A stretch of 64,000 nucleotides of DNA, taken from Octopus sinensis. Lineage: Eukaryota. Below, one piece after another: positions 139 through 32,700 of the stretch. The notes beneath the pieces are model-generated. The model worked only from the letters and a program-made list of their open reading frames with translations. It did not search any database and had not been told where the DNA came from. Made by a program: the position numbers and the translations under genes. The stretch is from positions 40,300,001-40,364,000 of the forward strand of contig NC_043006.1 in the NCBI RefSeq assembly GCF_006345805.1. Direction: 5' to 3'. Numbering within the stretch: the first letter of the stretch is position 1; every line of letters starts with the position of its first letter.

Positions 139-231
139 TTAGGCGGCAGCGATCACTATTATAACAATAACTGACAGCACCACCGTGAAGAACACGTGAA
201 CAAACAGACAACACTTCTTGAAGCGTCGACC
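139..231 (-). CDS. FRRS1: FRRS1-like last coding exon, C-terminal TM (GRRFKKCCLFVHVFFTVVLSVIVIIVIAAA*)
   Basis: tatttgcag acceptor; TAA at 141-139; resembles the FRRS1 G..FKK-TM tail. Confidence 0.88.
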   Translation of the reverse strand, partial: GRRFKKCCLFVHVFFTVVLSVIVIIVIAAA

Positions 232-3200
232 CTGCAAATAATAAACAGAACGGAAAAAAGTGAGTACAAACAAATATTGGTACATTGGATTGTAGGAAAG
301 TTTCAAAGAAGTGACGGTACATAGCTTAGCAGTTAGGGTATCCAGCTTACAACTTTACGGTCGTGAGTTCAATTCCTGGTGATGCTTTATTTCACATCGC
401 TCCAGTCCACTCAGCTGGCAAAAATGAGTAGTACCTGTATTTCAAAGGGCCAGCCTTGTCACATTCTGTGTCATGCTGAATCTTAAGGGTATGCATGCCA
501 CTTGTACATTAATTTCATGAGCAGGATGTTCCATTGATCAGATTAACTGGAACCCTCATAGTGGTAACCGACAGTCCCAAGTTAGTTTCAAAGAAACAAA
601 AATAAAAAAAATAAATACAAATAATACAAGCTTTTACTAGGCACATCACCATCAGATTTTGAAGGGAAGTGTACTCTAGATTGAATCAACCTCTGTTACA
701 GGGCTGGAACTTCAATTACTTTAATTTACGAGCCCAAATAGACAAAAGCTGACCCCAGAGAGATTTGAACAGAGAAGGTAAGCATTTGTAACCAAGTTCC
801 ACAATCTGAAACTGCATTCTCCTTATACAGAGTCACTTTTATTTCTTATTAATTAGGCATAAGATTAATTTATAGTAAAGATTGTTTGCCAACATAACAT
901 AGCAGTCCTGGTTTAGGACGAATGTTGCTGTAATTTAGCCCCCAGAGACATTGTCTCCGGTTGGCTATATGACACAATCTAAATTACAGCAACATTTGTC
1001 CTAAACCAGGACTGCCACATTATGTTGGCAAACAATCTTTACTACAAAGTACTGTAGCTGAATATCTCGTTGTGAGATTTAAAAATAATAATTTTCTAAT
1101 AAGATTAATTTATGTAGAATATAAATATTAACAAGTTAATTTAAATCCAGTATATTAAAATATATATTATCCCTGATGAAGGACTGGTTGGGTGGTTAAG
1201 TTCACTTCTGAGCCATATGGTCTAAAGTTCAGTCTCACTGCATGGGACCATGAGCAAATATTTTCTACTATAGCCCTAGGTCAACCAAAGCCTTGAGAGT
1301 GGATCTGGTAAATGGAAAACGAAAAAGTCCATTGTATATGGATGTGTGTGTTTGTGTCTGCTTGTCTTGCCATCATGTGATAATTGTAAATGAATCATTC
1401 ATTTTTAATATTCTGCAAAAAAACATGCTCCGGCAGATTGGAAATGAAGGAAAACGCTTGCATGGTGATGCTTATTTACAAACATCATAGCAAATTAAGG
1501 TAAGGAGACAGTAACACACACACACACACACACGCATTCAGTGGGTTTCTTCAGCTTGCCTCAACCAAATCATCTCACAAGGCATTGGTCAGCCTCGGTC
1601 GAGAGGAAACACTTGCCCAAGGTGCCACACAGTGGAACAGAACCCAAAACTACATGGTTGCAAAGCAAGCTTCTTAACCACACAGACAGACAGGCTTACT
1701 TACATATCTGTGGAATACTCATCCACTTACACGCTAAATCAATGAGTAAATAGTCCAGCTGACCAAACAATTAACTAAACATTGCTGAAACCTGATGGAG
1801 ATCTAAGTATCTATTTCGCTTATTTTACTCCAATACCATCAGCACAACAGGCAAGGAGCTTCCTTCAAACATCCCAACTGTTCGCTTTCCTCTCAGCTCC
1901 ACTTGAGCCAATTCCATTGCTAGTATGTCAACATACTAGCCAGTGGCACGTAAGAGAACCATCCGAACGTGGCCGTTGCCAGTGCCGCCCCGATTGGCCT
2001 CCATGCCGGTGGCGCATAAATAGCACCATCCGATCGTGGCCGTTTGCCAGCCTTGGCATCTGTGCCGGTAGCACGTAAAAAGCACCCACTACACTCACGG
2101 AGTGGTTGGCGTTAGGAAGGGCATCCAGCCGTAGAAACATTGCCAGATCAGACTGGGCCTGGTGCAGCCTTCTGGCTTCCCAGACCCCAGTTGAACCGTC
2201 CAACCCATGCTAGCATGGAAAGCGGACGCTAAACAATGATGATGATGATGATATGTCGACCTGGAATGTACTGTTCCACATTTTCCTTGGTCTTCCACTC
2301 AGTCTTTTTCCCTCTTTCCAGCATCCACCACATCACAATGGTAGCATGTTTCTCCTACAGTAATCAAAGCACATGGCTAGTAAACCATAATCCACTGCTT
2401 CATCACTATGTCCTGAAGTCTTCCAATTCAAGTTCTTTCCATCACTTCATTTCTCACTCTGCCCTGGTAAGAGATGCCCAGGATTGAATGCAGGCAGTGT
2501 CAACGGAACACAGCCAGCAATCTTATTACCGCTGTAATAACTGATCCTAAAATGAACTATACAGTATAAGGACCCTGTTTGTCAAACAACAACAACAAGA
2601 GACTATATAATAAGAGGTGTATACTTACAACGGGGTGCGGTTCTGGGATGTACAATTTTGGATTCTCCCTCTTTGAGTATTCATATTTTTCTCGGCGTTC
2701 TGCAATAGAGATAGCATTTGTGTCAATAACATGGAATCGTTTAAGACACTTAACCCATTCATGCTGATCGTCCGTTTAAACTGACAATTTATAAGGGTAT
2801 AAAACAAATACTTGATACAAATTGTGATTTATGTATGATCTGAATCAAAGAATGAAACATGTTCTTAACGCATATGCAGTCTATATCAAACGGATTTCAA
2901 GGAAATTTTTTCCAGTTGTTGTTTGGGTCAAAATAAGGGTATCTGTGAATTTTCAGGCAATTTCAGCAGAAATGGGTTAAGCAAACACAAGAGAGTTGCA
3001 CTGAGAACATGGAAGCAGGGGGAGAAAACTCTAGTGTTAGTTGTGCAGCTCCCTATGTAGCTCTTCAGCAGACAAAAGGTATAAAAAAAAAAAAGGTGTT
3101 TAGAAGTGACATCTTCAGGTGAGACTACGAAGAAACAAGAGGTGTATTGAAGCTTTTAGTATGCGACTGCTTGAGGAATACAGCAGCAATGAAGTTTCTC

Positions 3201-4855
3201 TAATAGGATGTGTGACGGAGTGAAGCGAGAGGTTGATTGGAGGCAAAGGAGGAAGGGAAATGTCAGTGAAAGAGAAAAATAAGCGAAAGAATCACGTAGA
3301 CAGAAAGAGACAGACAGCGAGGGAGAGAGAGAAAGATACAAACAAAAAGTGAGAAAAGAGGTGGTAGGAGGGGGCATGAGAAAGACAAAATGAGAGTACG
3401 ATGAGAATATGTGAGAGAAAAAGACAGAAGGAGAACAAGAGAATGAGAGGCAACAATAGAATAACAAAAAAAAAGAAAGGAACAAGAGAGAGTGTAAGAG
3501 GGAATAAGATGTTACAGGAATAGAGAGAGAGATATAATATAAGGAGAGAAGAAAGATAGAAAGAAGAGACAGAGAGATCAAATGAAGGAGAAAAATATAT
3601 TGAAAGATAGAGAGAAATGTGAGTGTTAAGAAGAGAGATGGAAAAAAAGAACTGGAGCATTTGAAAGACAAAGGAAGGAGGGGGAAAAGTCAGAGAGAAT
3701 GCACGGGAAGAGAGAGACAGAAATAGGGGGTACACTTAACCTGCTGCCTTGTTCAACACAACCACCTGATCTTTGAGTACCTTAAGCAAGTGTACGCTGT
3801 TATAAAGTATTCAAGGTAGCCCTTAGCCTGAGGATAACTTCCTCCCTGCTTCCCTTCCTCTCGCTTGTCTCAGAGGCCATGAAGAAAGGTTACATGTACT
3901 GTTCCACCTTTGCAATCCCACCCCATCCAAACTCCGATTAAATATTAGATACACAAAAATGAGTTACCTTCTGTAGTCATATTTCACTTGAGCTTTATTA
4001 TCAATTACTTAGATAATTAGTCAATTAATTGATGAATTAATCAAATAATTGGTTCACCATAAATCTTTCACCAGAGCCTTTGACCTTAACAATGATGATC
4101 CCACTCGCATCCCCCACATCCCAACATTTCCTCAGTTAACAGACACTTCTTGCTCCTTACTTGTTCCAAACTAATTATAAATTAACTGATGATAAAAACA
4201 ATCATACAATAAAACTAACTATCTAACTGATAATAAACTGAAGTGAACTACAACCAGTGCATGTGTTTCACTGACTGACAGTATGACCCTCCCAAAATGC
4301 AATAACATCTACTTCAACATACAATTTCACATTTCAAAGAAAAAAACTGCAAACTGAATGCAAATATGAAAGACTTACCTTCGTTCTTCTCGTAATAGCA
4401 GAAATCGTGAATCTTAAGTAAAATATCAATAATAAGCTGGATTATCATGATGGCAACAAGGAACCATGTAATCCACCAGGGTATGTAGTATCTGCCATAG
4501 TCTAGACTGATCAGTAAGGTTGGAACTGCAAGGAAACAAAGAGTAAACACCAATGAAAGTCTTATAGACCATATACATATAGAAGACCCAAAGAGTAGTG
4601 GGTAAACATTAAGCGTTATGGACTTTATATATCTTATTTATACTTTTATTGTCTTATTTCCCTCTATATTTCCTCTTCCACAATAGTTCGAACTCAAATA
4701 TTTTCTCACACCGCCTCTGATGAAAGGATGTTCATAATATCCCTGAAATAGTAGTAAGGCTACTTCATTATAAATGTCCTGAAAACTCTTCACAGCCTAA
4801 GCTTTGTTATCTCATTCTATCTAACACACATTCATACATACACACACACACACAC

Positions 4856-5024: not shown

Positions 5025-8000
5025 TAGATAGAATGAGATAACAAAGCCAAGGCTGTGAGGAGTTTCCACCAATCTACTGTATGTGCCAAAGCCAACAGGC
5101 TTCAGCACTATTTCCAATCTACCTAATTTCAATTGCAAGGCTTGGGCTAACTCAAGGCTAGGGTATACCATATATATATATATATATATATATCCAAGAT
5201 GCCACACAGAGGAATTGAACCCAGGACCTTTAAATAGTGAAGCAAACTTAACTATTCAGCCACACTGCATACTTTCATCACCATCTTTATTTAATGCCCA
5301 ATTTTCCATGGAATTTGTTGATGCAGATCTTCTACAGCCCGTCCTGTTGACAACCCTCACCTGTTTCCAAGCAAGGTAAGACTTCCACATGAACAGATAT
5401 TACAGTTCTATATTTAAGAGATGAGGAATTATGCACATTATTTACATTTGATGGATATTTGTCCTCATCTTGTTTGTTGTTAAAACGTTTCAGCTGATAT
5501 ACACTCCAGCCTTCATCAGGTATCTTGGGGAAATTTTGAACCTGGGTTCTCATTCCTAAGGTATTTTACGATATTATCATCATCATTATTATCATTACTA
5601 TTATTATTTAGGTCACTGCCTGGAATCAAACTTGGAATCTTGGGGTTAGTTGCCCGCGCTCTTAACCACTACGCCATATAATGAAGACAAATATCCATCA
5701 AATGTAAATAATGTAAATAATGAACAGATATGTTTTCCACAAAAGACTGGAAATGAACAACCTTGCCTGTATTATGATTAGGATGATGATGATGATTATT
5801 TATAAACATTTTGTTCTCTAGACCAGTGCCTTGCAACCGCTATGCAGAGGCATGCTGGTGTGCTACAAGATGACACTAGGTGTACCGCAGTGTAACCTAA
5901 ATATAATTTTTTTTCCCTATACTTTCAATTATAATTTTAGTTCAGGTGTGCTGCCGAATTTTGGAAAGAATATAAGTGTACCACATGTTAAAAATGGTTG
6001 CAGAGCAATGGTATAGACAAAGGTACACACACACACACAATGAGTTATCTGCAGTTTCCATCCAAATCTTTTACAAGGTTTTGGTTGACCCAGAGCTATG
6101 GTAAAAGATATTTGCCCAAGGTACCATGCAATGGACCTGAACTTAAGACCAAATGGTTGGGAAGCAATTTTCTTTACCACACAGCCGACACCTGTATGTT
6201 TATACATACATTTATACACTTTATACATGTATTTATACAGACACGTTTACATGTAAATCAGAGTTATGGAGGCGGGATCTGTTTCAAACAGCAGTAAATG
6301 TGAGTTATGATAATAATAATTATAATAATAATTAAAAATGTTTATGACGTAATTATGTGAGAGAGAGAGAGAGATGAAGAGACTGAGATTAAAGGAAAAC
6401 AAAGAAGTGCTGTCGGCAATGCTATAATACTCACTGGCCAAAATGAGAGTCACCAGGCAGAGAATGAAACAGATGATGTTGAAGATAAACTGAAGGCAGC
6501 CATCTGTGCATCGAATCAACAACATTATTATCGGCTGTAAGAGAAAAACAAAGAAAAGCGAGTCAGGGTTACAACAGATTCTTTCATGGTTTTATCTGCA
6601 TGACTGGATGAAATGGTTGTTTGTTTGTTTATTTATTTATTTATTTAGCTATTTATTTTCTATGCTTGTTTGTTTTTGTTTTTTTTTGTTGTTGTTTTTT
6701 TTTGTAGAGCTGTGTAAGATAAACACTTGCAAACAAATAGTAATGGCTTAGATCAGCAATCGCAGAGCAAACGGTGCAGTTTAGATAAATAGCAGAAGAA
6801 GAAAAGAAGAAGAAAAATCAATGGAGTTTGGTTGTATATAAACAACTGCAAATAAATAGTGTGGCTTAGATAAACACTTGCAAAATAAACGGTGTTGCTG
6901 ATGCTGACTTAGGAGAAACACTTGCAAATAAAATGATGTGGGCTTCAATAAACAATTATAAATGAAAGAAAACACAAGAGAGAAGTGATTAGTGGTTCTG
7001 TGTGTTGGTAACTGAAAAATAACTAAATAAGCAGAAGGACTGATAATTCCATACGAAAAAGAAGATTGAGGGTTTAGGTATTTGCTTAACGTAAGCTGTA
7101 CAATGTAAAACTAGCTGAGCAGAGATGATAGTAGCTTGGCTATCTAACTTGATGGATTATAGGTTCAAATCTTGTCTTTATGTTATTCTATAATCTTCAC
7201 TCGGCTGGCATTAGGTGTCAGTAAGATATTTCATGCTTCAAGAGTGATTTAACAAACATGGTTTGTTAAATCACTCCTGCTGTAGCAGAAGAGGAAATGA
7301 GATGAGAAGTTGAATCTCCAGTAAACTGGAGCTTGCGATACAGTTTCAATTCTCAGCGGGGAAATGTCTTGCATTGCTTAGGAGAGCAGTCATTTCTATT
7401 TCACTTTCGCTATAAACTCAACAAACCAGGGACATGCCCCCTAGACAGGCAAGATAGGCAGTGCCTACCTTGAGTAAAATATATCGATAGCAACATTTTC
7501 CTGTCACGGCAAAATATGCATCTAATTCAATAAAATTGTGATGGTTACTCTAATTACTATTCATAAAATACAAAATATTTTATTATTTGTAGATTAGGTA
7601 GAAATAATTCGCCCCTGCCTTTCAATCTCAGTATTAAAGCTACGAATAGGACTGGTGTAGTACACATGCTGCATACACTCCTACAACAACGCTATAAAGG
7701 CAGAAGTAAATCTGCCTTCAGCTCAGTCACACACCAGTGTTTTGCTTATTTTTTTGTATGCTTTACTACATAAAGGTCACCAACTGCCTACCCTGAGTAA
7801 TTACTGACAGCATGTGCCTGCAACAAACAATCACTCACTGATAGATGTCACTAACCTCAGAAAAGTCAAGTCATTGACTCCACTTGACAAATTTGTATAA
7901 GTAAATAATTTTTTTGGTTTCTTTTCTGTTGTATTTTTTAAGAAGTGCATTTCATTTCCTTTACTAGAAAAAGATTAACAATGTCAATTCTAGAAAGATT

Positions 8001-11000
8001 TGAGCTCACAAATGTGAAACAGTGAAGTACCAATCATAAGACCCCCAACATAGCAGTGTATTACTTGTATTAAGCTTATATTTATATCTGTGTTATAATA
8101 AAGAAAGCTGTTTATTAATTAGTCTAGAGTATATAACTTTTACTAAGAGAAAGTGACTATTAAAGCAATTATTAAAAATTCTTAAAAATCACGATTTTCA
8201 TATATTTTTATTAAAATGTGGTTTTGAAGATTCTTTTATTAATGGAGATTTCAACTACAGAAAAATAGTTTTAATTTATTATGGGATGGCATTATTTAAC
8301 ACAGTGAGGTAGCATTCTGTCATTGTCCTTTCTATCTCTCTTACGCCTCACAATGCTACTTCAAACAGACATATCAACAAAAATATATTTCTGATAGCCA
8401 AGTCTTTCAAGGAAATTACTGTTTGTGCTATTGTAGTTAGTATGATTATTTACAGTATTATTCTTTTATTCTTTTACTAGTTTCAGTCATTTGATTGCGG
8501 CCATACTGGAACACCACCTTTAGTGGAGAAAATCGACCCTGGACTTAATTTTTGTAAGCCTAGTACTTATTCTATCGGTCTCTTTTGCCAAACTGCTAGG
8601 TTACGGGGGACGTAAACACACCAGCATTGGTTGTCAAGCGATGTTGAGGACAAACACATGCACACACACATATATAAATGTATATGACGGGCTTCTTTCA
8701 GTTTCCATAGCAGCTGACTGGCTTCCGTGCCAGTGGCATGTAAAAAGCACCATTTGAGCGTGATCGTTACCAGTGTTGCCTTACTGGCACTTGTCGGTGG
8801 CACGTGAAAAAACATTCGAGCGAGGTCGTTGTCCAAGGGAAAGGCAAAGGCCAATCCAGCTTGGTACATAAAAAACACCATTTGAACGTGGCCACTGCCA
8901 GTACCACCTGACTGGCCCTTGTGCCAGTGGCACATAAAAGCACTCACTACACTCTCGGAGCAGTTGGCGTTAGGAAAGACATCCAGCTGTAGAAACTCTG
9001 CCTGATCAGATTGGAGACTGGTGCAGCCATCTGGTATACCAGTCCTCAGTCAAATAGTCCAACCTATGCTAGCATGGAAAGCGGACGTTAAATGGTGATG
9101 ATGATGAAATTCACTCACAAGACTTTGGTCAGCCCGAGGTCATAGCAGAAGACACTTGCCCAAGGTGCCATGCAGTGGGACTGAACCCAGAACCATGTGG
9201 TTGGTAAGCAAGCTACTTGCCACACAGCCACTCCAGGAATTTTTTTCTAAATCATTTCTTTTCCAAAAGAAAAAAAAATCTTCTAATATGTATATATACA
9301 ATAAACTGAGAGCTTTTACATGGTTAACTCAACATAATATCTGATATCTTCATTAATTCTAACACTGTCTTTCAGTGCGTGCTATTATTTGAAATTTATG
9401 TGTTATTAAATAAATAATGGATGCAAAAGGAAATTAGATGTAAAATATCGGTAAAATTATACAAATTGGGAATCAAATCTGTAACATTATTTTGCGAGTA
9501 GCAGAAAACCTTCTACTGGTAAATTAAATATTGATTGATAATGAATTCACTGAAAGCTAAACTGATTAATCTAACAGTCTTTGGTTGCCCAACCTGCTAG
9601 AAATAGCAACCAAATCCCATTTGAATTACACCCTACAATCTTTAAAAAAAAAAAAAAGGTCAATGAGTAATGTGGTCTTAGATGCACAATGCCTGAAATG
9701 AAGATAATGGATGAACATATACTGTATTCTTTGATCTGATCTCTGTTCACTGCAAAATTAGAAAACATTCAGTTGGTATATGGAAGAAGGTTTTGCTAGT
9801 TGCATGAGCTGAGGTGTCTATTTACAACCAGATAGACTGAGCCATACTCCACTGAGCCATGTTTAGTGACAGGACATGATCCAGTTAGACTCAAGCAGTA
9901 GTCTCCAGATCCCTTTGTCATGATAAAGCTGAACAGGGTTACCATCATCATCATTAACTGTTGAACATTACTGTCTCAAGTACAAGGGCTCAGAGGACCA
10001 GTTACTTGGTTTCTAAGGATTACAAGTGATTGAGACCACAACATTTCCTCTGAACAGGACACCAGTCCTATCATGAATGACCATGTGATTGCACCCAGAA
10101 AGTTCCCCCTCTGAGGTATAAGTCCAGGCAAGGTTGTTTGTGCAAGACCAGCTGTTGCCCATGCATACCAGCCTCTCCTCTCCATGCCACCGATGTTGTC
10201 CAAGGAAAAGGCAAAGGCCAATCCAGCTTGGCACCAGTGATGTCAAAACTCATTTCTACAGTTGAGTGAACAGGAGCAAAGTGAAATAAAGTGTCTTGCT
10301 CAAGAACACAACACACAGTCCAGTCTGGGAATCGAACTCACTACCTCATGATTGTGAGCCCGGCATTCTAACCACTGAGCCATGCGCCTTCTCATCATCA
10401 GTGGCAATCACACAGTGGAGGCACCAGCAATGGGTGGGGGAAAGAGGAAAGGCAGAGCGAGTCCTATCATAGTAAAGCTGAATATGGTTATCATCATCAT
10501 CGTCATCAATTCTTGGTTAGTCCACATTACTCCAAAAAGAGCATTAGGCCAGTTTATCAGGCATATATATTCCCCCATGGACGGGACACTGGTCAGTCTT
10601 AGGATTACTCTTTTTACTAGCAGGGTGGATGTGAAATAAAGTGATTTGCTCAAGAATACAACGCATTGCCTGGTCCAGGAATCAAAACCACAATTTTACA
10701 ATCATGAGTCCAACACCCTAACAACCAAGCCAAGGACATCACTATCTCAAGTTGTAGGATTTATAGAGCTGGTTGTCTGATTTCTAAGGCAAGATCACAA
10801 CAAATCTCTTGAACAGTATATCAGTCCATTGTAGGCTCATTTGTTTACAACTGAGTGAACTGTATCAACATGAAGTTAAGTGATTTACTCAAGAATGCAA
10901 TGCATTGCCCAGTCCTGGAATCAAAACCACAATCTTAAGGGTATGACCCTTCGTGGTTATGAGGTAGATATAATTTACATCACACTAAAAGGGACAATGA

Positions 11001-14000
11001 TCAAAATGTCTGAGTTTCCTGCTTGACATAAAATCACTACAAGGTGAGGAGTCTGGTGTAAGAATTGGCCAAAAAAATGTTTTACTTACGATTATTAAGA
11101 CACACACGAAGACGACAATCAGCATGATTGGGTGAGCTCTGAGCGGTAGATAGGGAGCCTGGAAATATAACAAAGAGAGAGAAAGATATTAGAAGGCATT
11201 TAAATAATAATAATAATAATAATGATGATGATGATGATTTCGGAGATAGGGGTAAGTCAAATGCATTGACCCCAGTGTTTCACTGGGACTTATTTTATTG
11301 ACCCCAAAAGAATGAAAGGCAAAGTCGACCTCGGCAGAATTTGAACTCAGAATGTAAGGGTGGCCAAAATACCACTAAGTGTTTTTCCCGGCATGCTAAT
11401 GATTCTGCCAGCTCGCCACCTTAATAATAATAATAATAATGATCATTTCTACTTTAGGCACAAGGCCTGAAATTTGGGGGAGGGGGATAGACGATTACAT
11501 CAACTCCAGTACTCATCTGGTACTTATTTCATCAACCCTGAAAGGATGAAAGGCAAAGTCAACCCCAGCAGAATTTGAACACAAAGACAGACAAAATACT
11601 GCAAACATTTCACCCAGCATGCTAACGATTCTGCCAGCTTGCCGCCTTAATAATAATTTTCTAAATTAGATACAATGCCAGTAATTCTGAAGAGGTTGGG
11701 TAGTCAGTTACATTGAGCCAGAACTAGACTAGTACAACAGGGTCTCTATGAACGTAATCCATTCCAGATCCCTGCTTGTTACTCAAATTGTTCGTTACAT
11801 GAGTAACTGAAAAGCATATAAACAGGGATAATCCATTCCAAGCCACATCCAAACTCCACTTAAAGGTGTGAAATGTTGTTTATTTATCCATTCCTCAATA
11901 GGCTAGTTTCCTGGTTTCCTTTGCACATATATTCCACCCCTGGGTGAGACACTGGTCTGTCACAGTGTTGGCCATTTTTGCCAGTTTGAATGGACTGGAG
12001 CACCATGAAATGAAGTGTTTTGCTCAAGGACCCAACGCATCACCCAGTCCAGGAATCGAAACTACAATCTTACAATCATGAGTCCAACACACTAACCACT
12101 AAACCACGAGCCTTCACCATCCCTCAATTGCAAATACTGTGTGTGTGTTTCCTTTGTTTTGCTTCTGTCAATCCAATGGTTGCTTTTAGCAAAAATACAA
12201 GAATCATTATTTACCATAGAAGGCAAACATTTGCAAGCTACACGAAATGTGTACATGGACATTAAACAAAACATTTGTACACGTTTTTCCAGCCACCTAC
12301 ATTGTCATCGTTTAATGTCCTCCTTCCATGCTGGCATGGGTTGGATGGTTTGACAGGGGATGGCCAGGCAAGAGCTTGCACCATGCTTCTGTGTCTGTTT
12401 TGGCATGGTTTTTATCAGAGCTGTGGAGTTGCAGAGTAGGAGTCAGAGTCAGAAACAATTCAGGGGTAACTGGAGTTGGAGTCGATAAAATAGACCACAA
12501 TCACTTTATTACATAGAGGAGTTAGAGTCGAAGTTTTTTTTTTTCCGACTCCACAACCCTGGTTTTTACAGCTGGATGCCCTTCCTAACACCAACTACTC
12601 CAAAGAGTTGAGTGAGTGCTTTTTACATGTCACTTGCACAGGTCAGTTCTGGTATGGTTTTTACAGCTGGGTGCCCTATAAATAAAAATGTGTGCTTAAA
12701 CTATTTAAGGTTTGTAGTAAAGATTGTTTGCCAACATAACATGGCAGTCCTGGTTTAGGACTAATGTTACTGTAATTTAGCCCCAGGAGACATCATCTCC
12801 AGCTGGCTATATGACACAATCTGTGTCCTTATATTTTCGAACAAGGGGATCTAGCACCCCCACTCAGCTCAAAACACTATCTGTGTATCGCGATTTCCGG
12901 GTGCTAGAGTGGGGGTACTAGATTCCCTTGTTCGAAAATATAAGGACTCAGATCGCGTCATATAGCCAGCAGGAGACGATGACTCCTGGGGCTAAATTAC
13001 AGCAACATTAGTCCTAAGCCAGGACTGCCATGTTATGTTGGCAAACAATCTTTACGACAAAGTACTGTTGCTGAATATCTCATGTTGTGAGATTTAGAAA
13101 TAGTAATATTTAAGGTTTGTTGTTCAAAGTTCAACAGGTCAGCTAAATATAATTTTTTTCAGAAGAACCATTCACCATTCAGTTTATTCATTTACTGTAC
13201 CATTCATACACATTCTCCCAGAACTTGTACGCTAGTGACGTTTACAAGTGGTTCATTGTCCAAATTTCATTTCTCTAAGTAAACTGACTCCCAGTCACTT
13301 ATAGGTTCACAGTCTGCTCGTGGTTCATGGATCAAATTTCAGCTCATTTTGGGAGTTTAATTTTATTCAGGAAAAACTATTCATTATACAATTTGTTTGT
13401 TTAGAGAACTGTTCATATATTGGTACCCCATTGCACTTTATCTTATCGACTTTGAAGAGATGAAAGGCAAAATCAAATCTGGCAGGATTTGAATCCAGAT
13501 CATTAAGAACAACAAAGTAAAGCAATTTGCCAAATGCCTCTAACGATTCTACCAATTTATCACACTTTTATTAATGATAGCTGTTTCTAATAGTAGTAGT
13601 AGTATAGACTGATGATTTTATATTCTCTCCCTGTTTATTTCAGTGTTCCTTTCTGCTGAAGAGCGTAGGTTCGAAATGTAAAAGACTTTCTCACTCCCCG
13701 AGCGTTAACCTAATACATCTGTTTGTTTGTTTACACATTCGTCTTCGTCTTTTGTTTTGTTTGTTTTGTTTTTTGGTAAATTCCAACTATAGAATGATGA
13801 TGATGGTGGTGGTGGTGATGATGATGATGATGATGCAATGATGATGTTGCAAATGACAACAGATAAAGAGAAGAAGGAAGACTTACCTCAACATATCCTC
13901 CTGCATCCACAAAGAAAAAGATGAAAGCCAAAATCATGAGCACAAACACTGACACCATACATGGCCAGTAGACCTGAAAAGACAAAAGAGAGAAAAGAGG

Positions 14001-17000
14001 GGTTCACTTCTAATATCAGGGGGGTGATCAGGTGATATACAGAAAACATGGGTGAGTTAAAATGAAAATAACTAGAAAGAAAAGAATAAAGGAAAATTAA
14101 ACTGTTTATAAAGGCACAGTAAAGAATTTGGATGGCAGAGTGAAAAGGGTAGTTTAGGCCCGGATTCGGTTGTGGGGTAAGAACGAGGCTTCCTGACATG
14201 TTCCTGTAGTAGCATTCATCCACATGGATCAAGATGACTCCAGCCAACAGGTTCACCAGGTCCTTCATGAGTGCTGACTGCAATGTTTAGGCATAGAGTT
14301 CATGTTTGGGATTTCAGCAGGAATGCAGGTTCACATATGGTCCTGTGAATTGGTCCTGTATTCACACTTTGGGATTGCATGATCGGTAGCAGCTCAACTT
14401 GTTGACTATCAACCATCACTGAAAATTTGCTGATCAAGTCACCACTGATTACTGGGGCAGATGTAGCCTGTCTTTGAAGTGGGCTCTAGAGACATGCTTT
14501 AACAAAAGCTAAGGGGAGCTTGGAATTTCTGAGGGTTCAGACCAACTGCTTGGCACCCTGCGCAAATGTCATCTAATTTAGTCCCAGGCCAAACAAAGCT
14601 TTTATAAATGGCAACTGTTGTATATATGTATATGCGTGTATATGTGTCAGTGTTACAGTTTCCTTGCTTTGATGTCATGTGATAGTTGTAAATGAGTGTC
14701 ACCACCACACATTCGGGGTCCATTTCCAATCTCATAAGGAAACTTGTCTGGTCATGTCAAACCGTCCAACCCATGCCAGCACAGAATGCGTTAAACGATG
14801 ATGACGACTTGAATCTCAGCTCAGATGTATAATTATAATTTGGTCAACAAGTTGTCTCATTCAGTGTATCTTACTTTCCAAGTGTAGTGAATCCCAGTTA
14901 AGTAAATCAAGGGAGGTTATTCTCTTATTTACAAATCAAGTTACTTCCCTTACAATGGCTAAAACAAAGCTAGACATGGTAACATAATTTCATTAGTATT
15001 TCCTATCGAAAAGGTGATTTATTTTAATAAGAATATGAGTTAGAAACCAATATTAATTAAAAATCTAATGGCTTCGGGAATGTCTCATTAAAGATTAGCT
15101 CTAAAATCGAATTACGTGAATCTCAGAATTATCGAGAATTTTAAAATATTCCTGTCACGTACCATTAACTCTAATTAATATGCACACAAACCATGAAACC
15201 ATTTAGGATACAAATTACTTTATCAAATATAATGCTTTTTTATTCACATTGTTTTGAATTAATCATGCTTTATCTCATTGCTTCGAAAATCGATGATGTG
15301 ACTGCTTATTTTTGAAATGACCTTGTAGGGTAGGTGCAAGAGGCCTGGCTTCTCCTGGCTGGTTTGAATATAGAACAGGGAGAATTTTGGCAGCCGGCCA
15401 GATAGGGCCAGTTTAAATGCTAATCTAATGGGTTACTGGAAAAACAAATGGAAGGCGGCGAGCTGGCAGAAACGTTAGCATGCCGGGCGAAATGCGTAGC
15501 CATATTTCGTCTGCCGTTACGTTCTGAGTTCAAATTCCGCCGAGGTAGACTTTGCCCTTCATCCTTTCGGGGGTCGATACATTAAGTACCAGTTGCGTAC
15601 TGGGATCGATCTTATCGACTGGACCCCTCCCAAATAATTCCGGGCCTTGTGCCTAGAGTAGAAAGGAAAAACAAAACGGGTTCCCCGGGTTACCTTTTTT
15701 CCTTTCTATAAATAACTTTCTGTGCTGGTTTTAAAGCAGACATGCTAAATAAAGAACAATGTGTATAGGTTCTGGATGTGGGTATAGGGGACGGGTGGGA
15801 AGACTAGGCTGTCACAGCTGGAGCATCATTGATTCTAGTTGACCTTGACAGCAGCTGACATTAGGTTAAAACCATCACCACTATATAACTGCTGCTGCTA
15901 CTACTACAAGTTTGTCCTTTGTTTTGCTGTTACGTTCTGCTGCTTGAAAATTCAATATAAGTGGGGGAGGTGGTGGTGCAGCAGCTGTTGTTTAGTGTTG
16001 TCCAACTTTCACAACATGGTGGATTATGAGTTTTGCACCACAGCAGTTGTAAATGAGTATCGTCATGATCATCATCATCATACAAGCAAGGTAGTTCGTT
16101 TTTGGCTGTTGCAGAGGACACGAACCCAGAATCTCTGAGGGCACATGCTTCGACAATGAAGATCATTTACAACCGTTATTTAATGCCAGCGCCGGTTTGC
16201 CTGGCTTCTGTGCCGGTGGCACGTAAAAAGCACCATCCGAACTTGGCCGATGCCAGTGCCGCCTTCACTGGCTTCTGTGCCGGTGGCACGTAAAAAGCAC
16301 CAACCGATCGTGGCCGATGCCAGGCTCCCCTGGCACCTGTGCCGGTGGCATGTAAAAAGCACCCACTATACTCTTGGAGTGGTTGGCGTTAGGAAGGGCA
16401 TCCAGCTGTAGAAACACTGCCAGATCAGACTGGATCCTGGTGCAGCCTCCTGGCTTCCCAGACCCCGGTCGAACCGTCCAACCCATGCTAGCATGGAAAA
16501 TGGACGTTAAACGATGATGATGATGATGAGACAACATGAGTTGCAAATGGGTATCACCATTGTCATACAAGCAAAGTTGTTCATTTTTGACTGTTGCAGA
16601 GAACGTGTCGACCAAGTCACCACTGATTACTGGAGCAGACATTGCTTGATTTGAAGTGAGTCAGGCTTTAACAAAAGCTAAGGAGTACCTCAATCTCAGT
16701 AGTCATCCAGTATTCCGGACATTGACCCAGAATCTCTGAGGGCATATGCTTCGACAATGAGAGTCATTTGGAACCATTATTTGATGTCTAGATGACACGA
16801 GTTGCTAATGAGTATCACCATTGTTATACAAGCAAGGTAGTTCGTTTATAGACGTCTGTGAAAATTATGTCTAGTTAAGGGAAATGTCTAGTTAATGCTC
16901 ATAACAGGAAGGTCATTTGGCTGTAGAAAATCTGCCTCAACAGATTCCATTTGACCCCATCACAAGCATGAAAAAGTGGATGCTAAATAATGATGTGTAT

Positions 17001-20000
17001 ACAGGCTTGGCCAAAAGTCACCTGACAGTAAATAAAAACCATTTAATTCCAAGATTTATTTATATTAACAACTGAATGAATTTAATAACAGCATCTAAAC
17101 AGAAAACATCACGAAAATTCTTCAAACTGAAGTCCTTCTTGAGTGACACATTTTCATGTACAAATCAATACAGAATTACAAAATTCACAACATCAAAATC
17201 TCGAAGCTATGGGATAATACGTGATTAATTCAAAGCAATGTGAATAAATAGGTATTAGATTTGATGGAGTAGTTTGGATGCTTAAAGGTTAAATGCAAGG
17301 GAGTAAATGCTCTCAGATGCTGTCAGAACTGAGATGAAATCTTCCTATCAAAGAGGAGAATGATCACATGAAAGGCTGTGGAAACAGAAAAGAGAAACAT
17401 AGAGCAAAAGAAAAGCGAAACAAACTTACCACAAACCAGTATCGTTTTTCAAGGAAGCGACTGTTGGGCCACATTCTCTTGTAGTACATTGACATTAAGC
17501 AACCAATAGGAGCACAGACTATCCAGGCCAATATCATCAGAATTACTGCAAAAAAACACAATAATATAGGAAGAATATCTGAGAAAATGTTCGTCTTTTA
17601 AATGAGAGCATGTTATTTCGTCATAGGGACACAGATGCTGAGTCGGATATGTCCTTAAATGAGATCAAGAAAGCGAATGTATGGTGGCACTAAAGTGGCA
17701 GCCTGAAGAGAAAAGAGCAGCAGGGCACTCTACAGCCACATAAAGGAGCATTGGCAAGGAAAGGACAGAAGGGTGGAGAAGCTGGAATGGGACCAGAACA
17801 GTCACAGAAAACAAAGCTGGTTGGAGAGATTGTATTGCAGCCTTATGTGCTTCATAGTACAGAGAGAACTAATTAATCAAATGATAATATGCTAACAGTA
17901 GCAGGTCTTAGCCAGAGTTATTGATACCCGACTTGGTTGTAGTTTAGTAGTTTGTGAAGAGTTTCAATGTTTTAGTGCTGTCGTTCATGAATCAGGAAGG
18001 AGAATTGTGAGATTGTTTCTTTGATATGTACTGTAACTGTGCCGGTGGCACGTAAAAAGCACCCACTATACTCTTGGAGTGGTTGGTGTTAGGAAGGGCA
18101 TCCAGCTGTAGAAACCTTGTCAGATCAGACTGGAACCTGGTGCAGCCTCCTGGCTCGCCAGTCCCCAGTCAAACCATCCAACCCATGCCAGCATGGAAAG
18201 CAGATGTTAAACAATGAAGATGATGATGATGATGATGGTTGTGTTTCCGAGCTATTGAAAGAGAGAGACTTCATTGAAGTGACCCATTTAAAAGATGTCA
18301 TGATAAGCAATGCAGGGTTTGGCAGGATATGAAAATCAAAATCAAAAGCAAATCAAGATCGAAATCAAAATGGAAATAGTTGTTGTGACCAATGCCAGTG
18401 CCACCTGACTGGCACTCGTGCTGGTGGCATGTAATAAGCACCACTCAAGTGTGGGTCAATGCCAATACCGCCTGACTGGCTTCCTGTGCTGGTGGCACAT
18501 AATAAGCACCAACTGAACGAGGTTGATGCCAGTGCCACGTGACTGACTCCCCATGCTGGTGACATGTAAAAAAACACCCACTACACTCTCAGAATGGTTG
18601 GCATTAGGAAGGGCATCCAGCTGTAGACACCTCGCCAAATTAAATTGGAGCCTGGTGCAGCCAACTGGATTTCAAATTGAAGTTATAGCTACAAAACATA
18701 CATAGTCTTTTTATTTATTATATACTGTTTATTTATTATTATGTACTTTTTGTGATCTAGATATATGTTTTATCATATATTTCATTTTTTCTATATGATA
18801 TGGTTTATGGCTATCATTGTTTGAATTACATGATAGTGGTTTTTCTTTAATTTTTATATATTATATATTTATATTGTGAAATTTGATTTAATGCTAAATT
18901 GAATTTTTCCCTGTAAGTTTGGAGTTATACTCTCTATTATTATTATTATTATTATTATCATTATTATTACATATATATACGACAGACTTCTTTCAGTTTC
19001 TGTCTACCAAATCCACTCACAAGGCTTTGGTCAGCCCAAGACAATAGTAGAAAACACTTGTCCAAGGTGCCACACAGTGGGACTGAACCTGGAACCATGT
19101 GGTTCATAAGCAAGCTGCTTCCCACACAGCCACTCCTACGCCTAGTAGTATATAATGAGACAAAAGCTACCCAGATATATAATAGAAAATCTTATCATGA
19201 TTCCTTTTGCATGGGATTGCCATACAAGGATGGGCCAAGTAGATCATCACAGTCCCAAGTCAGTTCATATTCAGATTTACTCCACACCTGGACAGGTGAG
19301 ACACCCATGTCTTACTTGTTATTAAGATTTGGTGAAAAGGATCGTTTATATCACTACTTACCATGAGTTTTAGCAATGGGGTATCTTGAAATACCAGAGA
19401 TATCATCCGTTTCTGACATGTCCACTTCTTCCACTGAGACAATTGGTACACGACCAATGCCAAGACCATGTTCTGTCTTCTTACCTGGAATACAAGAATG
19501 CAGAGTCAGTTAAACTATTATTCTTATCAGTATAATCAGAACTAAAACAACCTACCACTTCTACTACTACTGCTTATAACAACAACAACAACTACAAACT
19601 ATAATCACTGTTGTCTCTATCACAAACATCACCCCAAACTACTAAAAATTTCACATCATTTCAAACACTGCTACAATCCAGTCTGTGGGACACCACCAAA
19701 TTCTTAATCAGTGAATTCCTCCACCTCAATCTCACTATGTAATAATTAGTTCCATGCTGTCGTCCTCATCGTCATTATAATTACAGTAATTCCTCGACTA
19801 TTGCAGGTGTTACATTCGAAGACCCCACCTGTGATAGGTGAAAATCCGTGAAGTAGAAACAGTACTCTACTTATTCTTTTACTTGTTACAGTCATTTGAC
19901 TGTGGCCATCCTGGAGCACTGTATTTTAGTTGAACCAATTGACCTCAGGACTTATTCTTTGTAAGCCTAGTACTTATTCTATCTGTCTCCTTTGCCAAAC

Positions 20001-23000
20001 CGCTAAGTTACGGGGTCGTAAACACACCCGCATCGTTTGTCAAGCGATGTTGGGGGGACAAACACAAACACAGAAACATATACACACACACACACACACA
20101 TACCAATATATATATACATGACAGGCTTGTTTCATTTTCCGTCTACCAAATCCACTCGCAAGGCTTTGGTCGGCCCGAGGCTATAGTAGAAGACACTTGC
20201 CCAAGGTGCCATGCAGTGGGACTGAACCCAGAACCATGTGGTATATATACAGTAATCCCTTGGCTATCATGGGTGTTACATTCCAACTCCCACCAACCCC
20301 CATGATAGGTGAAAATCCGAAGTAGAAATAGTACTGTACTGTACACTCTTTTTTTTTTATATAATTTGTATATATTTAATTATAAATGCAAAACAACACC
20401 ACAGAGGAATCAACGTAAGCTTAAATAATAAGGATATATGAGAAGTGGGGGTGCTGAAAAGTTCCTGGCTTTGGGTAAAAGAAAATACAGGAGAATCAAT
20501 TAATTATAATTTTATTCAACATATTCCCCTCTCGAATTCACATACTCATTGCAGTCATCCTTCAGTTTTTCTAAGCCTTGTAAAAGAACTCGGAAGGTTG
20601 GATCACCAACCAGGCCTTTCATAAAACCCTTAAAGCTAGGAACTTTACAGCACCCCCTCGTAAGTATATCTGGTCTACCCTTCATACAACAATAAAAACA
20701 CTGTAGATACATCCTATTATTACTACTTTTGTTATTGTTGTTGTTGTTTAATGCCACATCAGCCCTGATCAAGCAAGATGATCTGGCTTTACCCATACTC
20801 GTCGTAATATTCAGATAAAGTGTATTCAAGACTCTTATCCAATGTGTCCTTTTTTTTATAATACAATAGAATGATGACCCCTTAAACAGTGTGGCATGGC
20901 ACACACTATTTGGTGGTAAGGCTCCAGTTCAGGAATATAGAGGAGTATGGAATTATCCTTAGCCACCACAATTCTTAGATTCCAAGCAAAGAAAGCTATT
21001 ACTTCCTTACCATGAAGGAATGTGATGATTCTGGTTTCTTACCAAGAAAGGAATGCCTGATTCCCTTTTAATAAAGGAGATACATCAGATTCCTAGCTAG
21101 AAAAATTGGAGTTCCCAGTTCTCTTCCAAGAAAGGAGATCCAGGAACTCCCTACCAAAAGAAGGATCTCCTAGATTGCAGCCAAAAAGAGAATCCTGGTT
21201 GCCTACCAAGAGACCCTCATTCCCCACAAAGAAAAAAAAAGGATTACCTAGTTTACACAAAAAAGGATACCTAGTAGGAGTACCCTACAAAATAAATGTA
21301 CCTAGTACTTTGTTCTAAGACAGCATGCTCCTGTCTTCCTATCAATCTCCATGATTCCCACCAAAAATGGAGCTGCTCCTGATTGGTAATGTCTTGGTAG
21401 GGCCATCTCACAAGGAGATATTGTACGGGTTTGGGTTCTCTGATGGTCTTAAAGAGAGAAATCTGAACTTACCGTCCCATGCTTTACCTCCGCCCAACAA
21501 GACGTGCCATTTGCCTTCCTTCAACATGTAGTCATGTTTGTTGCCAGCACTTTTCTGGATACGGAACAAGCATCGTAGACGGTTGTTGTAGTGGGATCCA
21601 GTTTCAAAGACAATTCCTTTTTTGGGCTGATGGAGAGAGAGAGAGAGAGATTATGAAAATATGAGACACAAGGAAGACGGAAAGAGAAGGAAACAGAAGG
21701 ACAGAGAAAAGAATTAAAAAGAGCAAGAAAAGAGGAGAGAGGATGAATAAGAGACAAAAAGAGCAAGAAGGGAGAGAAAGAGAGAGATAAAGGCATAAGG
21801 AAGAAGTGAAAGAAGAAAATAGGGGAGAAGTGAAAAGAAAGAGAAAGAGAAACGAGTAGAAAGTGAAGAGAAAAAATTAACAATAGTTGGTGATATTAAA
21901 GATGTTTTATTAAAATAGTTTGATTAATTGAGTGAATTTTAATAATTTCCGTGGTCAGTCTGTGACTTAATATAAGTAAGACCAGTTCTGACCATTGTTG
22001 TGCTCAATATGTGACTAAATATTATGTATCCTATATACATTAGTTGGACTGATGTCATCTTAATTGTTGCTTTCACCACATTTCAGCTGTTGTTTGCTTC
22101 AGCCTTCTTCAGGTAACTTCAGGAGTTGAATTCGGTTGTAATTTCAACAGAAGACACTTGAAGAAGGCTGGAGAAAGTAACAGCCAAACCATAGTGAAAG
22201 CAACAGTCAAAATGAGAACACCAGTCCAATAAATATAAACAGGATACACATAATAAATTCCTCATCTTAGAAATATAGAATTACATGTGTCTAAATATAT
22301 CAGAACCAGATCTCTTAATTACCTGTGATTTTTGTGTGATTGAGTGCATTAGGGGACGAGTCCTGGTTACATAACAATCAGTATTGGCTAGTAATTTATT
22401 TGTCCTTTTGGTCAATATTTGGGACACTGACCACACAGCAAATAGCTAACCAGTCTCCCAGTTTCCATCACCCCTCCTCCAGTGAGATTGTGGAAAATCT
22501 GAAATAATCAACTTGGGTCTATTACCACTACTACAGGAAGGACTGCTGCCACAGGGCCATAACCATGACCACAGAGCTTTTGGCACAACAAGGTTATCAC
22601 CCCCACCACTACTTAGATATAATGTAGAGTGTCATCATCACCAGCACCACCACCACCACCACCATTTAACATCTGTTTTCCATGCTGGCATGGGTTGGAT
22701 GGCTTGACAGGAACTTGCAAGGCTAGGAGCCACATCAGGTTCCATTGTCTGTTTTGGCATGGTTTCTAAGGCCGGATGCCCTTCCTAATACCAACCACTT
22801 CATAAAGCGCACTGGGTGTTTTTTATGTGGCACCAGCACCAGTGTTATCATCATCATAATTGTTTAACGTCCGTTTTCCATGCTAGCATGGGTTGGACAG
22901 TTCAACCGGGGTCTGGGAAGCCAGGAGGCTGCACCAGGCTCCAGTCCGATCTGGCAGTGTTTCTACAGCTGGATGCCCTTCCTAATGCCAACCACTCCAT

Positions 23001-26900: not shown

Positions 26901-27828
26901 CCGGCACGGAAGCCCGTCAAGGTGGCGCTAGCATCAGCCATGTTCGGATGGTGCTTTTTTATGTGCCACCGGCACAGGTATCAAAACTCGTCAACTGTTA
27001 TTGACATTATTTTGAATTAATCATAAATTATTTTGTGATTGGCTACTTTTAGAATGACCTTGTACAGTGGGTGTGAGGGGCCAGCACTGGTCAGTTTTGA
27101 ACATAAAGCAGGTAGAATATTTTGGCCAGATCTGACCCAGTTTAAATGCTAAAAGCTAAAACAACAACATTAACTGGAAGTAGCTCTACTTACCTCGTCT
27201 AATTCCACGATATCGTTTACTCCTCTGATGTAGGAAAGTGAAACAGATACAACTCCATGTTTGAAATCCTCAATGCAGTCAAACGCATAGTCATCACCCT
27301 GGATAACAAAAAGAAACTCAAATTATCAGACATCATGGCTATCTTGGGTAGATACACACCTGCTGTCATTACCCCATCATCATCATCACCAACATTTTAA
27401 CATCCACTTTTTAATGTTTGTATGGGTTCTAGGGAATTTTTTTTTAAGTAGATTTTTCTACAGCCAGATGCCTTTCCCATCACCAACCCTAACCTCTTTC
27501 CAAGCAAGGTAATATTTCCCTATGGCCAGACATGTTTTTATAGAAGACTGGAAAGAAACAACACTGCTTGTTTGACAGTGACACTCATTTACAACTATCA
27601 CACAATATCAATTCAAAGAAACACACACACACACACACATATATAGGGATGTGTGTGTGTGTGTACATACATAATGTCCGCCTTCCGTGCTGGCCTAGGT
27701 TGGATGGGTTGACAGGTGTGGGCAGGGTAGAAGACAAAACCAGACTTCTGCCTGTTTTCACTTAATTTTTACAGCTGGATGCCCTACCTAACATGAACCA
27801 CCCTGAAGAGTGGACTGAGTGCTTCACT

Positions 27829-29788: not shown

Positions 29789-32700
29789 ATATATATATAT
29801 ATATATAATATATATATATATTATATATATATATATTACGGAGATGTACTCGCATAGCAAGTAATCTGATCTGAGATCGTGTGCTGAAACGAAAACAATT
29901 GCAGCGTGGAAGGTGTTTATAAGCCATTTAAGAAACACAGACATATATATATATATATATATAAGCAAATAATTATAATAATATAGAATCTGGAGACTTG
30001 TTCATCCTCAAAAATTATTTCTTTTTATTTTACAATTCCATACAAAATATATATATATATATATTACAGTTCTATATTTAAGAGATGAGGAATTATGTAC
30101 ATTATTTACATTGGACAGATATTTGTCCTCATCTTGTTTGTTATTAACACAATGTTTCGGCTGATATACCCTCCAGCTTTCATCAGGTGTCTTAAGGAAA
30201 TTTCGAACCTGGGTTCTCATTCCTAAGGTATTTTTCGATGTTATTATTATTATTACTATTACTCAGGTCACTGCCCAGAATCGAACTCGGAATCTTGGGA
30301 TTAGTAGCCCGCATTCTTAACCACTACGCCATATGCCCACGGGCATTCCAAAGTTGTCTGGAGGCCATGGTTGAAGCCAATGGTGATTTTATTGAATAAT
30401 TTACTCTTTAGTATTTCAAAATATTTTAATGTAATTTTGGTAAATATATCTGTTAAAATGAGATGTCAGTGTTATTTTCATTTTTATGTAATTTAGACAA
30501 TATATTCAGTGGGAGCTAATGCAGTTTCACACCTCTCCTTGAAAAACGCATTTTTTTGAAAATATTTTTTCAGATTCCTACGTTTTAGATGTTGGAGATT
30601 ACGAATATGCAAAAAAAAAAATTTACGATTACTCTTTTACTTGTTTCAGTCATTTGACAGCAGCCATGCTACAGCACCGCCTTTGGTCAAGCAAATTGAC
30701 CCCCAGGACTTATTCTTTGTAAGCCTAGCACTTATTCTATCGGTCTCTTTTGCCAAACTGCTAAGTTACGGGGACGTAAACACACCAGCATCAGTTGTCA
30801 AGCAATGTTGGGGGGACAAACACAGACACACAAACACACGTGTGTGTATATATATATAAAGGGTTTCTTTCTGTTTACCAAATCCACTCACAAGGCTTTA
30901 ATCAGCCAGAGGCTATAGTAGAAGACACTTGCCCAAGGTGCCACACACTAAACCCAGAACCATGTGGTTGGTAAGTAAGTTACTTACCACACAGTCACTA
31001 GTTAAGGCAAACACAAGTAAAACGCAAATTCTTTTCACTTTGATGTTTTAGTCTATATTTAATTTCAATTTGCATATGTTCATCAATTCACTACAATTTC
31101 TTCCAAATAAACAAAATCAAAATTTCATATTCGGAGGGTGAAATGTAAAAAAATTCATTTCTTTGCATATTCATAATCTCCAACATCTAAAACGTAGGAA
31201 TCTGAAAAAACGTTTTCAAAAACGCGCATTTTTCAAGAAGAGGTGCAAAACTGCATTAGCCCCATTCACTGCGCCCTGTATATATAATGTCTTTCAGTTA
31301 TGCTACATGTGCAGAGTAACTAAGGCACATACCCATCATATAAAGATTTAAAGAAAAACTAAAACAGGAGAAATGTTAAGAATGTAAGACAAACTTCCTT
31401 GCCAGAGCAATTCACAGATATTCACTTACCTCATATGTATCATCAGACAGAGCAAATGTCATCCAGACATTGTGAATTCGACCTGTAGCCATACTCATTT
31501 CCACCTCTACGACATTGTCAATGCTCTTCCAGGTTACGATGTACTTGCAGTTCAGCTCCCAGCATCCTGCTGGTTCCCGATAGCAACCACGAGTCTTGCC
31601 ACAGTCGGCTGTATTGATCTGCTTCGTTAAGGGAACAATGTTCTGAAATATGGAAAATTGGGGTGAAATTAATATACCGTATATATTCGAGTGATAGACA
31701 AACTCATGCAAAAGTCAACCTCCTATTTTTGGCCAAAAAAATTGGGAATTTTCCATAGAACCCATATAAAAGTCGACCCTAGTATTTCACAAACAACAGG
31801 ACAACATTTGTGGGTCAAGATACCATACTGTCCCCTACGTAGAATTAACAGTTACAAAATTGTGTGGCTACCTTACTGTAGCCTGCTCTATGGGTGGAAT
31901 GCTTATAAAGGAATGCTCGGTGCTTATAGTAGGAGCACTCCATCGGTTGCGACGACGAGGGTCCCAGCTGATACAATCAACAGAACAGCTTGCTCATGAA
32001 ATTCACATGTAAGTGGCTGAGCACTCCAAAAATACATGTGTACCCTTAACATAGTTCTCGGGGAGGTTCAGCGTGACACAGGGTGTGATAATGCTGACCC
32101 TTTGAAATACAGGTACAACTCATTTTCGCCAGCTGAGTGGACTGGAGCAACGTAGAATAAAGTGTCTTGCTCAAGAACACAACGCGTCGCCAGGAATTGA
32201 ACTCACGATCTTATGATCATGAGCTGAATGCCCCTAACCACTAAGCCATGCGCCTTCACCATTTAATAACGAGCACTACACATCTGTTGATGGGTGCTGC
32301 ATTACCATTACTAAAATGTGAAAATGTATGCACAGGATATGCTGCAAGTACTATAAACATACACTTGTTGTTTACATGGTAAGAAACGTGTTTCACAGAC
32401 AGCACTATTGACAAACACTGGCAAATGCCACAGTCTGAATTCATACAAAGGCATGACATTGGTAAGCCTAAAAATCATTCAATTAATCATTGGATCAGTG
32501 GTTGCTATGCAACCTTTATATTTTCCTCATTTCCAAATCCAATAAACACATGTGTCATATGCTTGTTGTTTACATGGTGAGAAACATGTTTTACAGACAA
32601 CACTATTGGTGAACAATAGCAAACACCACTGTAGGAATTCATACAGAGGCATAACTTTGGTAAGCCTAAAAAACATTTAGTTAATCACTAGATCATTGGT

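Follow-up and report, generated by a model that had tools for sequence, protein, structure and literature searches.

Does a gene annotated as a ferric reductase still encode one when part of its heme-binding apparatus has been replaced? This question is raised by a 64,000-nt stretch of the Octopus sinensis genome (contig NC_043006.1, positions 40,300,001 to 40,364,000 of the forward strand; hereafter the window, to whose numbering all coordinates refer unless stated otherwise). The minus strand of the window carries 15 coding exons (42292 to 139) separated by 14 GT-AG introns. The 1809-nt coding sequence gives a protein of 602 residues, the length of the model in the initial annotation, and translates exactly to XP_029641557.1 (P0001), a Reeler-DOMON-cytochrome b561 protein named putative ferric-chelate reductase 1 in the database. 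By descent it belongs to the FRRS1-type CYBDOMs, but the ligands that define a functional di-heme b561 are not all present in it. The best reading of the evidence is a selected pseudo-reductase, likely a heme- or metal-binding receptor or scaffold at the cell surface.

The membrane part of these proteins holds four heme-ligand histidines, here termed H1 to H4 (H4-7 denotes the residue seven places before H4, and so on). The four residues singled out by the initial annotation were all found at the proposed minus-strand codons. The non-cytosolic pair is kept: H1 is His375 (CAT, 19365-19363) in exon 8 (19362..19484) and H3 is His452 (CAC, 11134-11132) in exon 11 (11090..11158), which encodes helix 3. 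The cytosolic pair is replaced by Tyr416 at H2 (TAC, 13970-13968; exon 10, 13887..13973, helix 2) and Cys488 at H4 (TGT, 6471-6469; exon 12, 6435..6534, a cytosolic loop plus helix 4). In a 16-row alignment both residues fall in the H2 and H4 columns of the mollusc orthologs (WFVAH and FNWFH). The octopus protein has no histidine between residues 375 and 452 and none between 452 and 539, so the alignment register need not be trusted; the four core helices contain no other histidine. The Tyr/Cys combination is present in all four octopod proteins (O. sinensis, O. vulgaris, O. bimaculoides and Argonauta), which rules out chance or an assembly error. The reference for the ligand columns was the mollusc orthologs plus 150 representatives at 50% identity, none of them named human FRRS1; 141 aligned at all membrane sites, and 130 of these have the four histidines. 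That only 11 of the 141 lack any of the four also argues against chance.

The surroundings of the cytosolic heme have changed as well. The ascorbate-binding arginine at H4-7 is Gln481 and the residue at H3+14 is Ile466 (exon 11), positions occupied by Arg and by Asn or Gln, respectively, in 130 of 130 four-His representatives; Cys492 (exon 12) stands at H4+4, where the same 130 have Gly or Ala. At H1+20, basic in most relatives (Lys or Arg), the octopus protein has Met395, encoded with membrane helix 1 in exon 9 (17430..17545). Roles for the H4-7, H3+14 and H4+4 sites have been described (PMC10691727; for R307 of HYP1, PMC10784544). Within the cytosolic ascorbate site only Asn485 (H4-3, exon 12) is retained. 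The loop before H4 is of ordinary length: from H3+14 to H4 it spans 23 residues, as it does in the majority of orthologs.

The initial annotation held that exactly one heme pair had been lost, which proved too few. Glu248 (GAG, 31432-31430), the last codon of exon 5 (31430..31642, where DOMON begins) and outside the coordinates considered there, stands at the place of the heme methionine in the SxDxxMGxD motif of DOMON (PMC10691727). Three of the six heme ligands (H2, H4 and the DOMON Met) are consequently lost. All seven coleoid rows tabulated have Glu at this position; they keep the DOMON His and its flanking Ser and Asp, the octopus residue being His340 (19470-19468, exon 8), and the acidic loop GDD is retained in exon 6 (27194..27298). 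A Met/His axial pair occurs in 132 of the 142 representatives with both sites aligned, and Glu/His in the coleoid representative only.

Pfam recognized the Reeler domain (residues 29-155, expect value (E) 2.3e-17) and, below the cut-off of 32.7 bits, DOMON (E 9.9e-7, 29.5 bits). PF03188 gave no match in the four octopod rows and matched the other 12 of the 16 aligned. A model of the membrane part (residues 361-602, from 100 sequences; predicted local distance difference test score (pLDDT) 94) contained six membrane helices and a cytosolic helix. Its two best structure matches were cytochrome b561 4O6Y and Dcytb 5ZLG, both with Z 12.0 (root-mean-square deviations of 3.3 and 3.0 over 158 and 162 aligned residues), and NOX and STEAP domains ranked next. 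The full-length model from the 16-row alignment was mediocre (pLDDT 68), with meaningful structure matches to Reeler only, and by sequence Dcytb emerged from the PDB no better than at E 4.5. The signal-like N-terminus and the basic loops after helices 1 and 5 place H1/H3 outside and H2/H4 in the cytosol. The H2/H4 pair is likewise on the cytoplasmic side in Dcytb (PMC10691727) and in HYP1, a CYBDOM, where it is H245-H314 (PMC10784544), which bears out the earlier proposal that the two b561 ligands lost are those of the cytosolic heme. For the octopus protein itself, fold and topology of the b561 part are predictions.

Electrons in CYBDOMs are thought to pass from cytosolic ascorbate to the H2/H4 heme, then to the H1/H3 heme and on to the DOMON heme. 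In the octopus protein this trans-membrane wire is very probably cut, because the entry heme and the ascorbate arginine are gone and the pocket appears to be filled by hydrophobic side chains. The cytosolic pocket would be empty or filled, and ascorbate-driven ferric reduction would be absent. The loss of trans-membrane electron transfer suggested from the sequence at the outset is thus very likely; the gene itself is unbroken, spliced and under constraint. The retained elements, His340, His375, His452 and the acidic DOMON loop with its added Glu, lie on the outward side and would be expected to hold one cofactor, either a single heme or a metal ion. We consider it reasonably probable that the protein is an intact, spliced pseudo-reductase that passes no trans-membrane current and acts at the cell surface as a receptor or scaffold, with a single cofactor site on its outer side; the leading guess for its role would be that it binds or senses heme or iron outside the cell.

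Is the octopus protein an isolated case? With the membrane part of the Solemya ortholog as query, 68 proteins were retrieved and 79 sequences were aligned. A tree was built from 53 rows (26 near-duplicates, fragments, distant paralogs and extra annelid-like rows were omitted) after removal of 14 trait columns. The octopus protein lay inside a 44-row mollusc clade (support 100/98; 99 in a quick mixture-model tree), the branching of which largely agrees with the known mollusc groupings. This grouping with His-complete FRRS1-like proteins, together with the domain layout, supports CYBDOM/FRRS1 membership by descent. H4 is His in Solemya, the chiton, the mussel- and oyster-cluster proteins and the remaining gastropods; it is Tyr in heteroconch bivalves, the scallop Ylistrum, sacoglossan slugs and P0030, Phe in decapods, which retain H2, and Cys in octopods. 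Conservation of the Tyr/Cys pair across cephalopods thus held for the four octopods but not for the decapods. On the aligned sequences, H4 loss extends beyond the octopus to the coleoids as a whole, heteroconch bivalves, the scallop, sacoglossans and P0030. Parsimony gave six H4 changes on the 53-row tree. One belongs to P0032, a member of the annelid-like clade with Tyr at H2, Leu at H4 and Pro for the DOMON Met; as P0030 and the sacoglossans branch from an unresolved node, the mollusc H4 losses number four to five. A single H4-less clade (23 rows versus 30) was rejected in the approximately unbiased test (p-AU 7.45e-8). The DOMON Met changed four times (to Glu, Trp, Cys and Pro). An H2 gap in Pinctada was traced to a gene model without most of that exon, and was excluded from the losses.

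Within the 44-row clade, the double loss of H2 and H4 was confined to octopods, and Glu at the DOMON Met and a non-Gly residue at H3+4 to coleoids. H4, the DOMON Met and several pocket residues would have changed on the coleoid stem, and H2, H1+20 and the H4-7 Arg would have been lost later, on the octopod stem. The coleoid branch was placed at the base of the mollusc clade (node support 83 in the quick mixture-model tree), with a long stem and short tips; nesting of coleoids within Conchifera was weakly rejected (p-AU 0.036, LG+G4). A long-branch effect or an old duplicate is a possible cause of this basal placement.

The pocket changes accompany the ligand changes. The Asn at H3+14, which positions H4, is gone in 25 of 25 H4-less mollusc sequences and in none of 38 H4-intact ones, and the H4+4 Gly is gone in 24 of the 25. 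The DOMON His is retained in 16 of 16 sequences that lack the Met, a set in which 21 of 161 columns are invariant. Among the 11 representatives without a His, eight lack cytosolic ligands only, two lack ligands on both sides and one (P0146) lacks H1 and H3 only. The independence of H4 loss in several mollusc lineages suggests a second, probably non-enzymatic role, and the octopus protein may be regarded as a conserved pseudo-reductase that has gone furthest along a course taken repeatedly by molluscs. A broader proposal can be put forward only tentatively, its chance falling well short of even: that the molluscan FRRS1 orthogroup was repeatedly converted from a three-heme wire to a receptor that handles heme or metal on the outward side only, with the conserved function residing in the outer site and the cytosolic heme being dispensable even in His-complete members. 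The commonness of pseudoenzymes, and of ligand loss among the representatives (11/141), limits the surprise.

Further losses of heme ligands were seen among these proteins. In the pteriomorph orthologs P0183, P0185, P0189, P0194, P0198 and P0209, from the mussel, oyster, pearl-oyster and scallop groups, the DOMON heme Met is Trp, a change at the other end of the electron path from that of H4; the four mussel- and oyster-group rows keep the four b561 histidines. P0146 is a mirror image, in which H1, H3 and both DOMON ligands are lost and H2 and H4 kept. P0227 (Schistosoma) has Val and Gly in place of the two DOMON ligands and keeps the four b561 histidines. FRRS1-like proteins outside the orthogroup with lost heme ligands include P0047 (Potamilus), P0172 (Brachionus), P0149 (Gordionus), P0141 (Tegillarca) and P0080, all single gene models.

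Does the outer site of the octopus protein still hold a cofactor? Mutants of related proteins make such a site feasible. When H2 and H4 of a plant b561 are both mutated, the low-potential heme is retained (PMC10005133, citing Desmet 2011), and mutation of H1/H3 left the localisation of HYP1 undisturbed (PMC10784544), so folding alone need not explain why H1 and H3 are retained. Several observations weigh on the other side. Gly at H3+4, found in 130 of 130 four-His representatives and in all seven non-coleoid representatives that have lost cytosolic ligands only, is Leu456 (exon 11) in the octopus; Ser506 at H4+18 (exon 13, 4379..4525) is matched by Ser in only 2 of the 130, the usual residue being Gly or Ala. 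Neither of the small residues expected next to the outer heme is thus present, and the octopod set Val376 (H1+1, exon 9), Leu456 and Ser506 is that of P0080, which lacks H3. Mutation of the DOMON His impairs trafficking of HYP1 (PMC10784544), so His340 may be kept for folding. Core identity is 57% to decapods and 85% to Argonauta, and retention of H1/H3 within coleoids alone is weak evidence. The co-loss of H4 and the H3+14 Asn, although seen in five of five independent pairs, gives p 0.0625 (too few pairs for 0.05), that of H4 and the H4+4 Gly was seen in four of five, and DOMON Met loss was uncoupled from H4 loss (about two of five pairs); the columns tested were, moreover, picked from a paper and after the alignment had been viewed. 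As to the fold, Z 12 falls short of about 13, the value below which the tool advises caution with helical bundles, and with the membrane model Foldseek gave no match at E<=0.001, b561 entries ranking 6, 10 and 18. The apparent erosion of the outer pocket in octopods is the main evidence against a simple mono-heme protein, one of the two candidates of the initial annotation. With three small outer-heme residues enlarged, the chances that the octopus site holds heme seem about evenly balanced; an outer heme is more likely in the bivalve and slug proteins, given that their outer-pocket glycines are intact.

The octopod protein could instead be wholly free of cofactors, the six helices anchoring an adhesive or protein-binding ectodomain and His375 and His452 being structural or slow to change. 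The P0080-like outer pocket, the missing DOMON Met and the extra step of decay from decapods to octopods would suit it. However, between the base of the coleoid stem and O. sinensis there were about 1.4 changes per column, through which H1, H3 and the DOMON His persisted while H2 and H4 became hydrophobic, and H1 and H3 are His in all 25 H4-less molluscs, in a core where just 20 of 143 columns are invariant. We regard a cofactor-free protein as rather improbable, though not negligibly so.

It may also be asked whether the protein is still redox-active, through altered ligation (Tyr/Cys in octopods, His/Tyr in bivalves and sacoglossans), through a different cytosolic donor to one heme, of the STEAP or NOX type, or through pairing with an intact paralog. 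Tyr and Cys are able to ligate heme; H4 is Tyr in every H4-less non-coleoid mollusc sampled, H2 is kept outside octopods, and STEAP and NOX domains are the next fold matches. Yet decapods have the non-ligating Phe at H4, the H4+4 Gly is replaced by Trp or by Cys or Ser and the H3+14 residue by a hydrophobic one, as in a filled pocket, and octopods have lost both the H1+20 propionate partner and the H4-7 Arg. Adenosine-to-inosine editing is no rescue, since it cannot make His from TAC or TGT, and the exon 10 contigs described below show no other letter. Continued redox function therefore seems unlikely, and a pseudo-reductase with an outward-facing site remains the preferred reading.

Is the gene model itself sound? 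Of 22 sequencing runs listed, none is on record as RNA and 16 were guessed to be RNA. In each of four runs one contig covers exon 10 (13886-13974) with zero differing letters, and beyond the exon the contig continues, by eye, with the last part of exon 9 on one side and the first part of exon 11, His452 codon included, on the other. The Tyr416 codon is therefore carried by spliced contigs from four of four runs. No variant letter was found in exon 10 on the contigs of these four runs, contigs being prone to drop rare variants. Exons 7 (21473..21626, DOMON) and 13 lie on one contig, 490 letters apart as in the model, in three of four runs compared over this span, and are divided between two contigs in the fourth. 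Profiles of His-intact exons 10 and 12 detected nothing above noise in the window that might be an alternative His-bearing exon; as the exon 12 profile missed the real exon 12, this absence is only modest evidence.

The membrane core differs less between species than the Reeler domain does, both for O. bimaculoides (2/143 versus 13/132 differences, p 0.002) and for Argonauta (22/143 versus 51/129, p 9e-6). On these comparisons the core is under stronger constraint at the protein level, as distinct from the ratio of non-synonymous to synonymous substitution rates. The open reading frame and splice sites being intact and constraint present, the gene does not look like a pseudogene. A redundant copy decaying under relaxed selection, or an artefact of gene model or assembly, might be suspected from the intact paralogs, the long coleoid stem and contigs that were read at the Tyr416 codon and not at the Cys488 codon; the open reading frame intact throughout octopods and decapods, the conserved core, the model-length spacing of exons 7 and 13 and the lack of an alternative His-bearing exon in the window make either very unlikely.

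Two further Reeler-DOMON-b561 genes are present in the genome. In the exon parts recovered, the paralog on C24 (4.07-4.10 Mb) shows H2, H3, H4 and the DOMON Met, and that on C23 (11.71-11.74 Mb) shows H1, H2, H4 and the DOMON Met; from these residues both look canonical and may be backup copies. His-bearing single-domain b561 exons lie on C6 and C10. With the Pomacea ortholog as query, no credible second copy of the octopus gene's orthogroup was found in the genome; a match at C1:70.6 Mb has three stops and was treated as noise. A cluster of six DOMON exon matches at C8:101.78-102.06 Mb may be a monooxygenase gene array.

The octopus protein resembles the animal CYBDOM ferric reductases FRRS1/SDR2 and Drosophila CG8399 in its Reeler-DOMON-six-helix b561 layout, and shares with them H1, H3, the DOMON His, the SxD...GxD acidic loop, W at H2-4, F at H2-3 and N at H4-3. 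Unlike them, it lacks H2, H4, the DOMON Met, the H4-7 Arg, the H1+20 Arg or Lys and the H3+14 Gln or Asn. FRRS1L, an AMPA-receptor-associated DOMON protein, reportedly provides a non-redox role for a relative of FRRS1; it is not known to have a b561 bundle, whereas the octopus protein keeps all six helices. Molluscan orthologs of the same clade either have all six ligands (Solemya, Pomacea, Aplysia, Liolophura) or have Tyr at H4 (Mercenaria, Mya, Sinanodonta, Ylistrum, Elysia, Plakobranchus). Arabidopsis HYP1 and CRR share with the octopus protein an outside DOMON, a predicted three-heme path and cytosolic H2/H4, but are demonstrated ascorbate-dependent reductases with six ligands, of which the octopus protein has lost three (PMC10784544, PMC10784552). 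Arabidopsis CYB561B1 H83/H156 double mutants also have the cytosolic His pair removed, and the low-potential heme remains in them (PMC10005133); they are laboratory-made and single-domain, whereas the octopus change is natural, fixed across species and accompanied by extra pocket changes on both sides. According to PMC10691727, the DOMON Met and His are universally conserved among the animal CYBDOMs sampled, Drosophila CG6479, which lacks the conserved His, was excluded, and the role of Reeler and DOMON in animal CYBDOMs is unknown; O. sinensis is named in its methods. The literature searched, which left most subscription papers out of scope, yielded no description of a His-less mollusc FRRS1 or of the six accessions tried.

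Several proteins of this set are labelled ferric-chelate reductase 1 in databases. For the octopod copy this label would be incorrect, and for the clam, scallop and sea-slug orthologs it would be open to doubt. An orthogroup that repeatedly drops the inner heme and keeps the outer histidines would separate the redox job from the other function of the ectodomain, in a way testable through natural variants. If the broader proposal of repeated conversion is true, bivalves, sea slugs, squids and octopuses would form a natural graded series of two-, one- and possibly zero-heme cytochromes b561.

The remaining exons complete the layout. Exon 1 (42100..42292, residues 1-64) encodes the hydrophobic signal-like N-terminal segment and the start of Reeler, which continues through exons 2 (39046..39191) and 3 (35657..35745) and ends, followed by a linker, in exon 4 (34516..34618). 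Besides Ser506, exon 13, which is present on spliced contigs like exon 7, encodes helix 5 and His539; exon 14 (2629..2699) encodes a charged cytosolic loop, and exon 15 (139..231) helix 6 and the stop codon. The helix 5 His/Glu/Glu/His motif of the orthologs (H529, E533, E537, H539) reads Gln/Asp/Lys/His in octopods (4439-4407, minus strand). His539, Cys542 and His584 are nearly invariant in molluscs, and may possibly form a cytosolic site for a metal or a partner. Intron 2 contains a 167-bp tandem repeat (36486-37714; 7.4 copies, 98% identity). Upstream of the first coding exon, a short-unit tandem repeat (45260-46880) yields long His/Cys/Trp-rich open frames on the minus strand and is probably non-coding. 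A reverse-transcriptase fragment lies at 52317-53261 on the plus strand (Pfam RVT_1, E 1.2e-11), and is probably the remnant of a long interspersed nuclear element.

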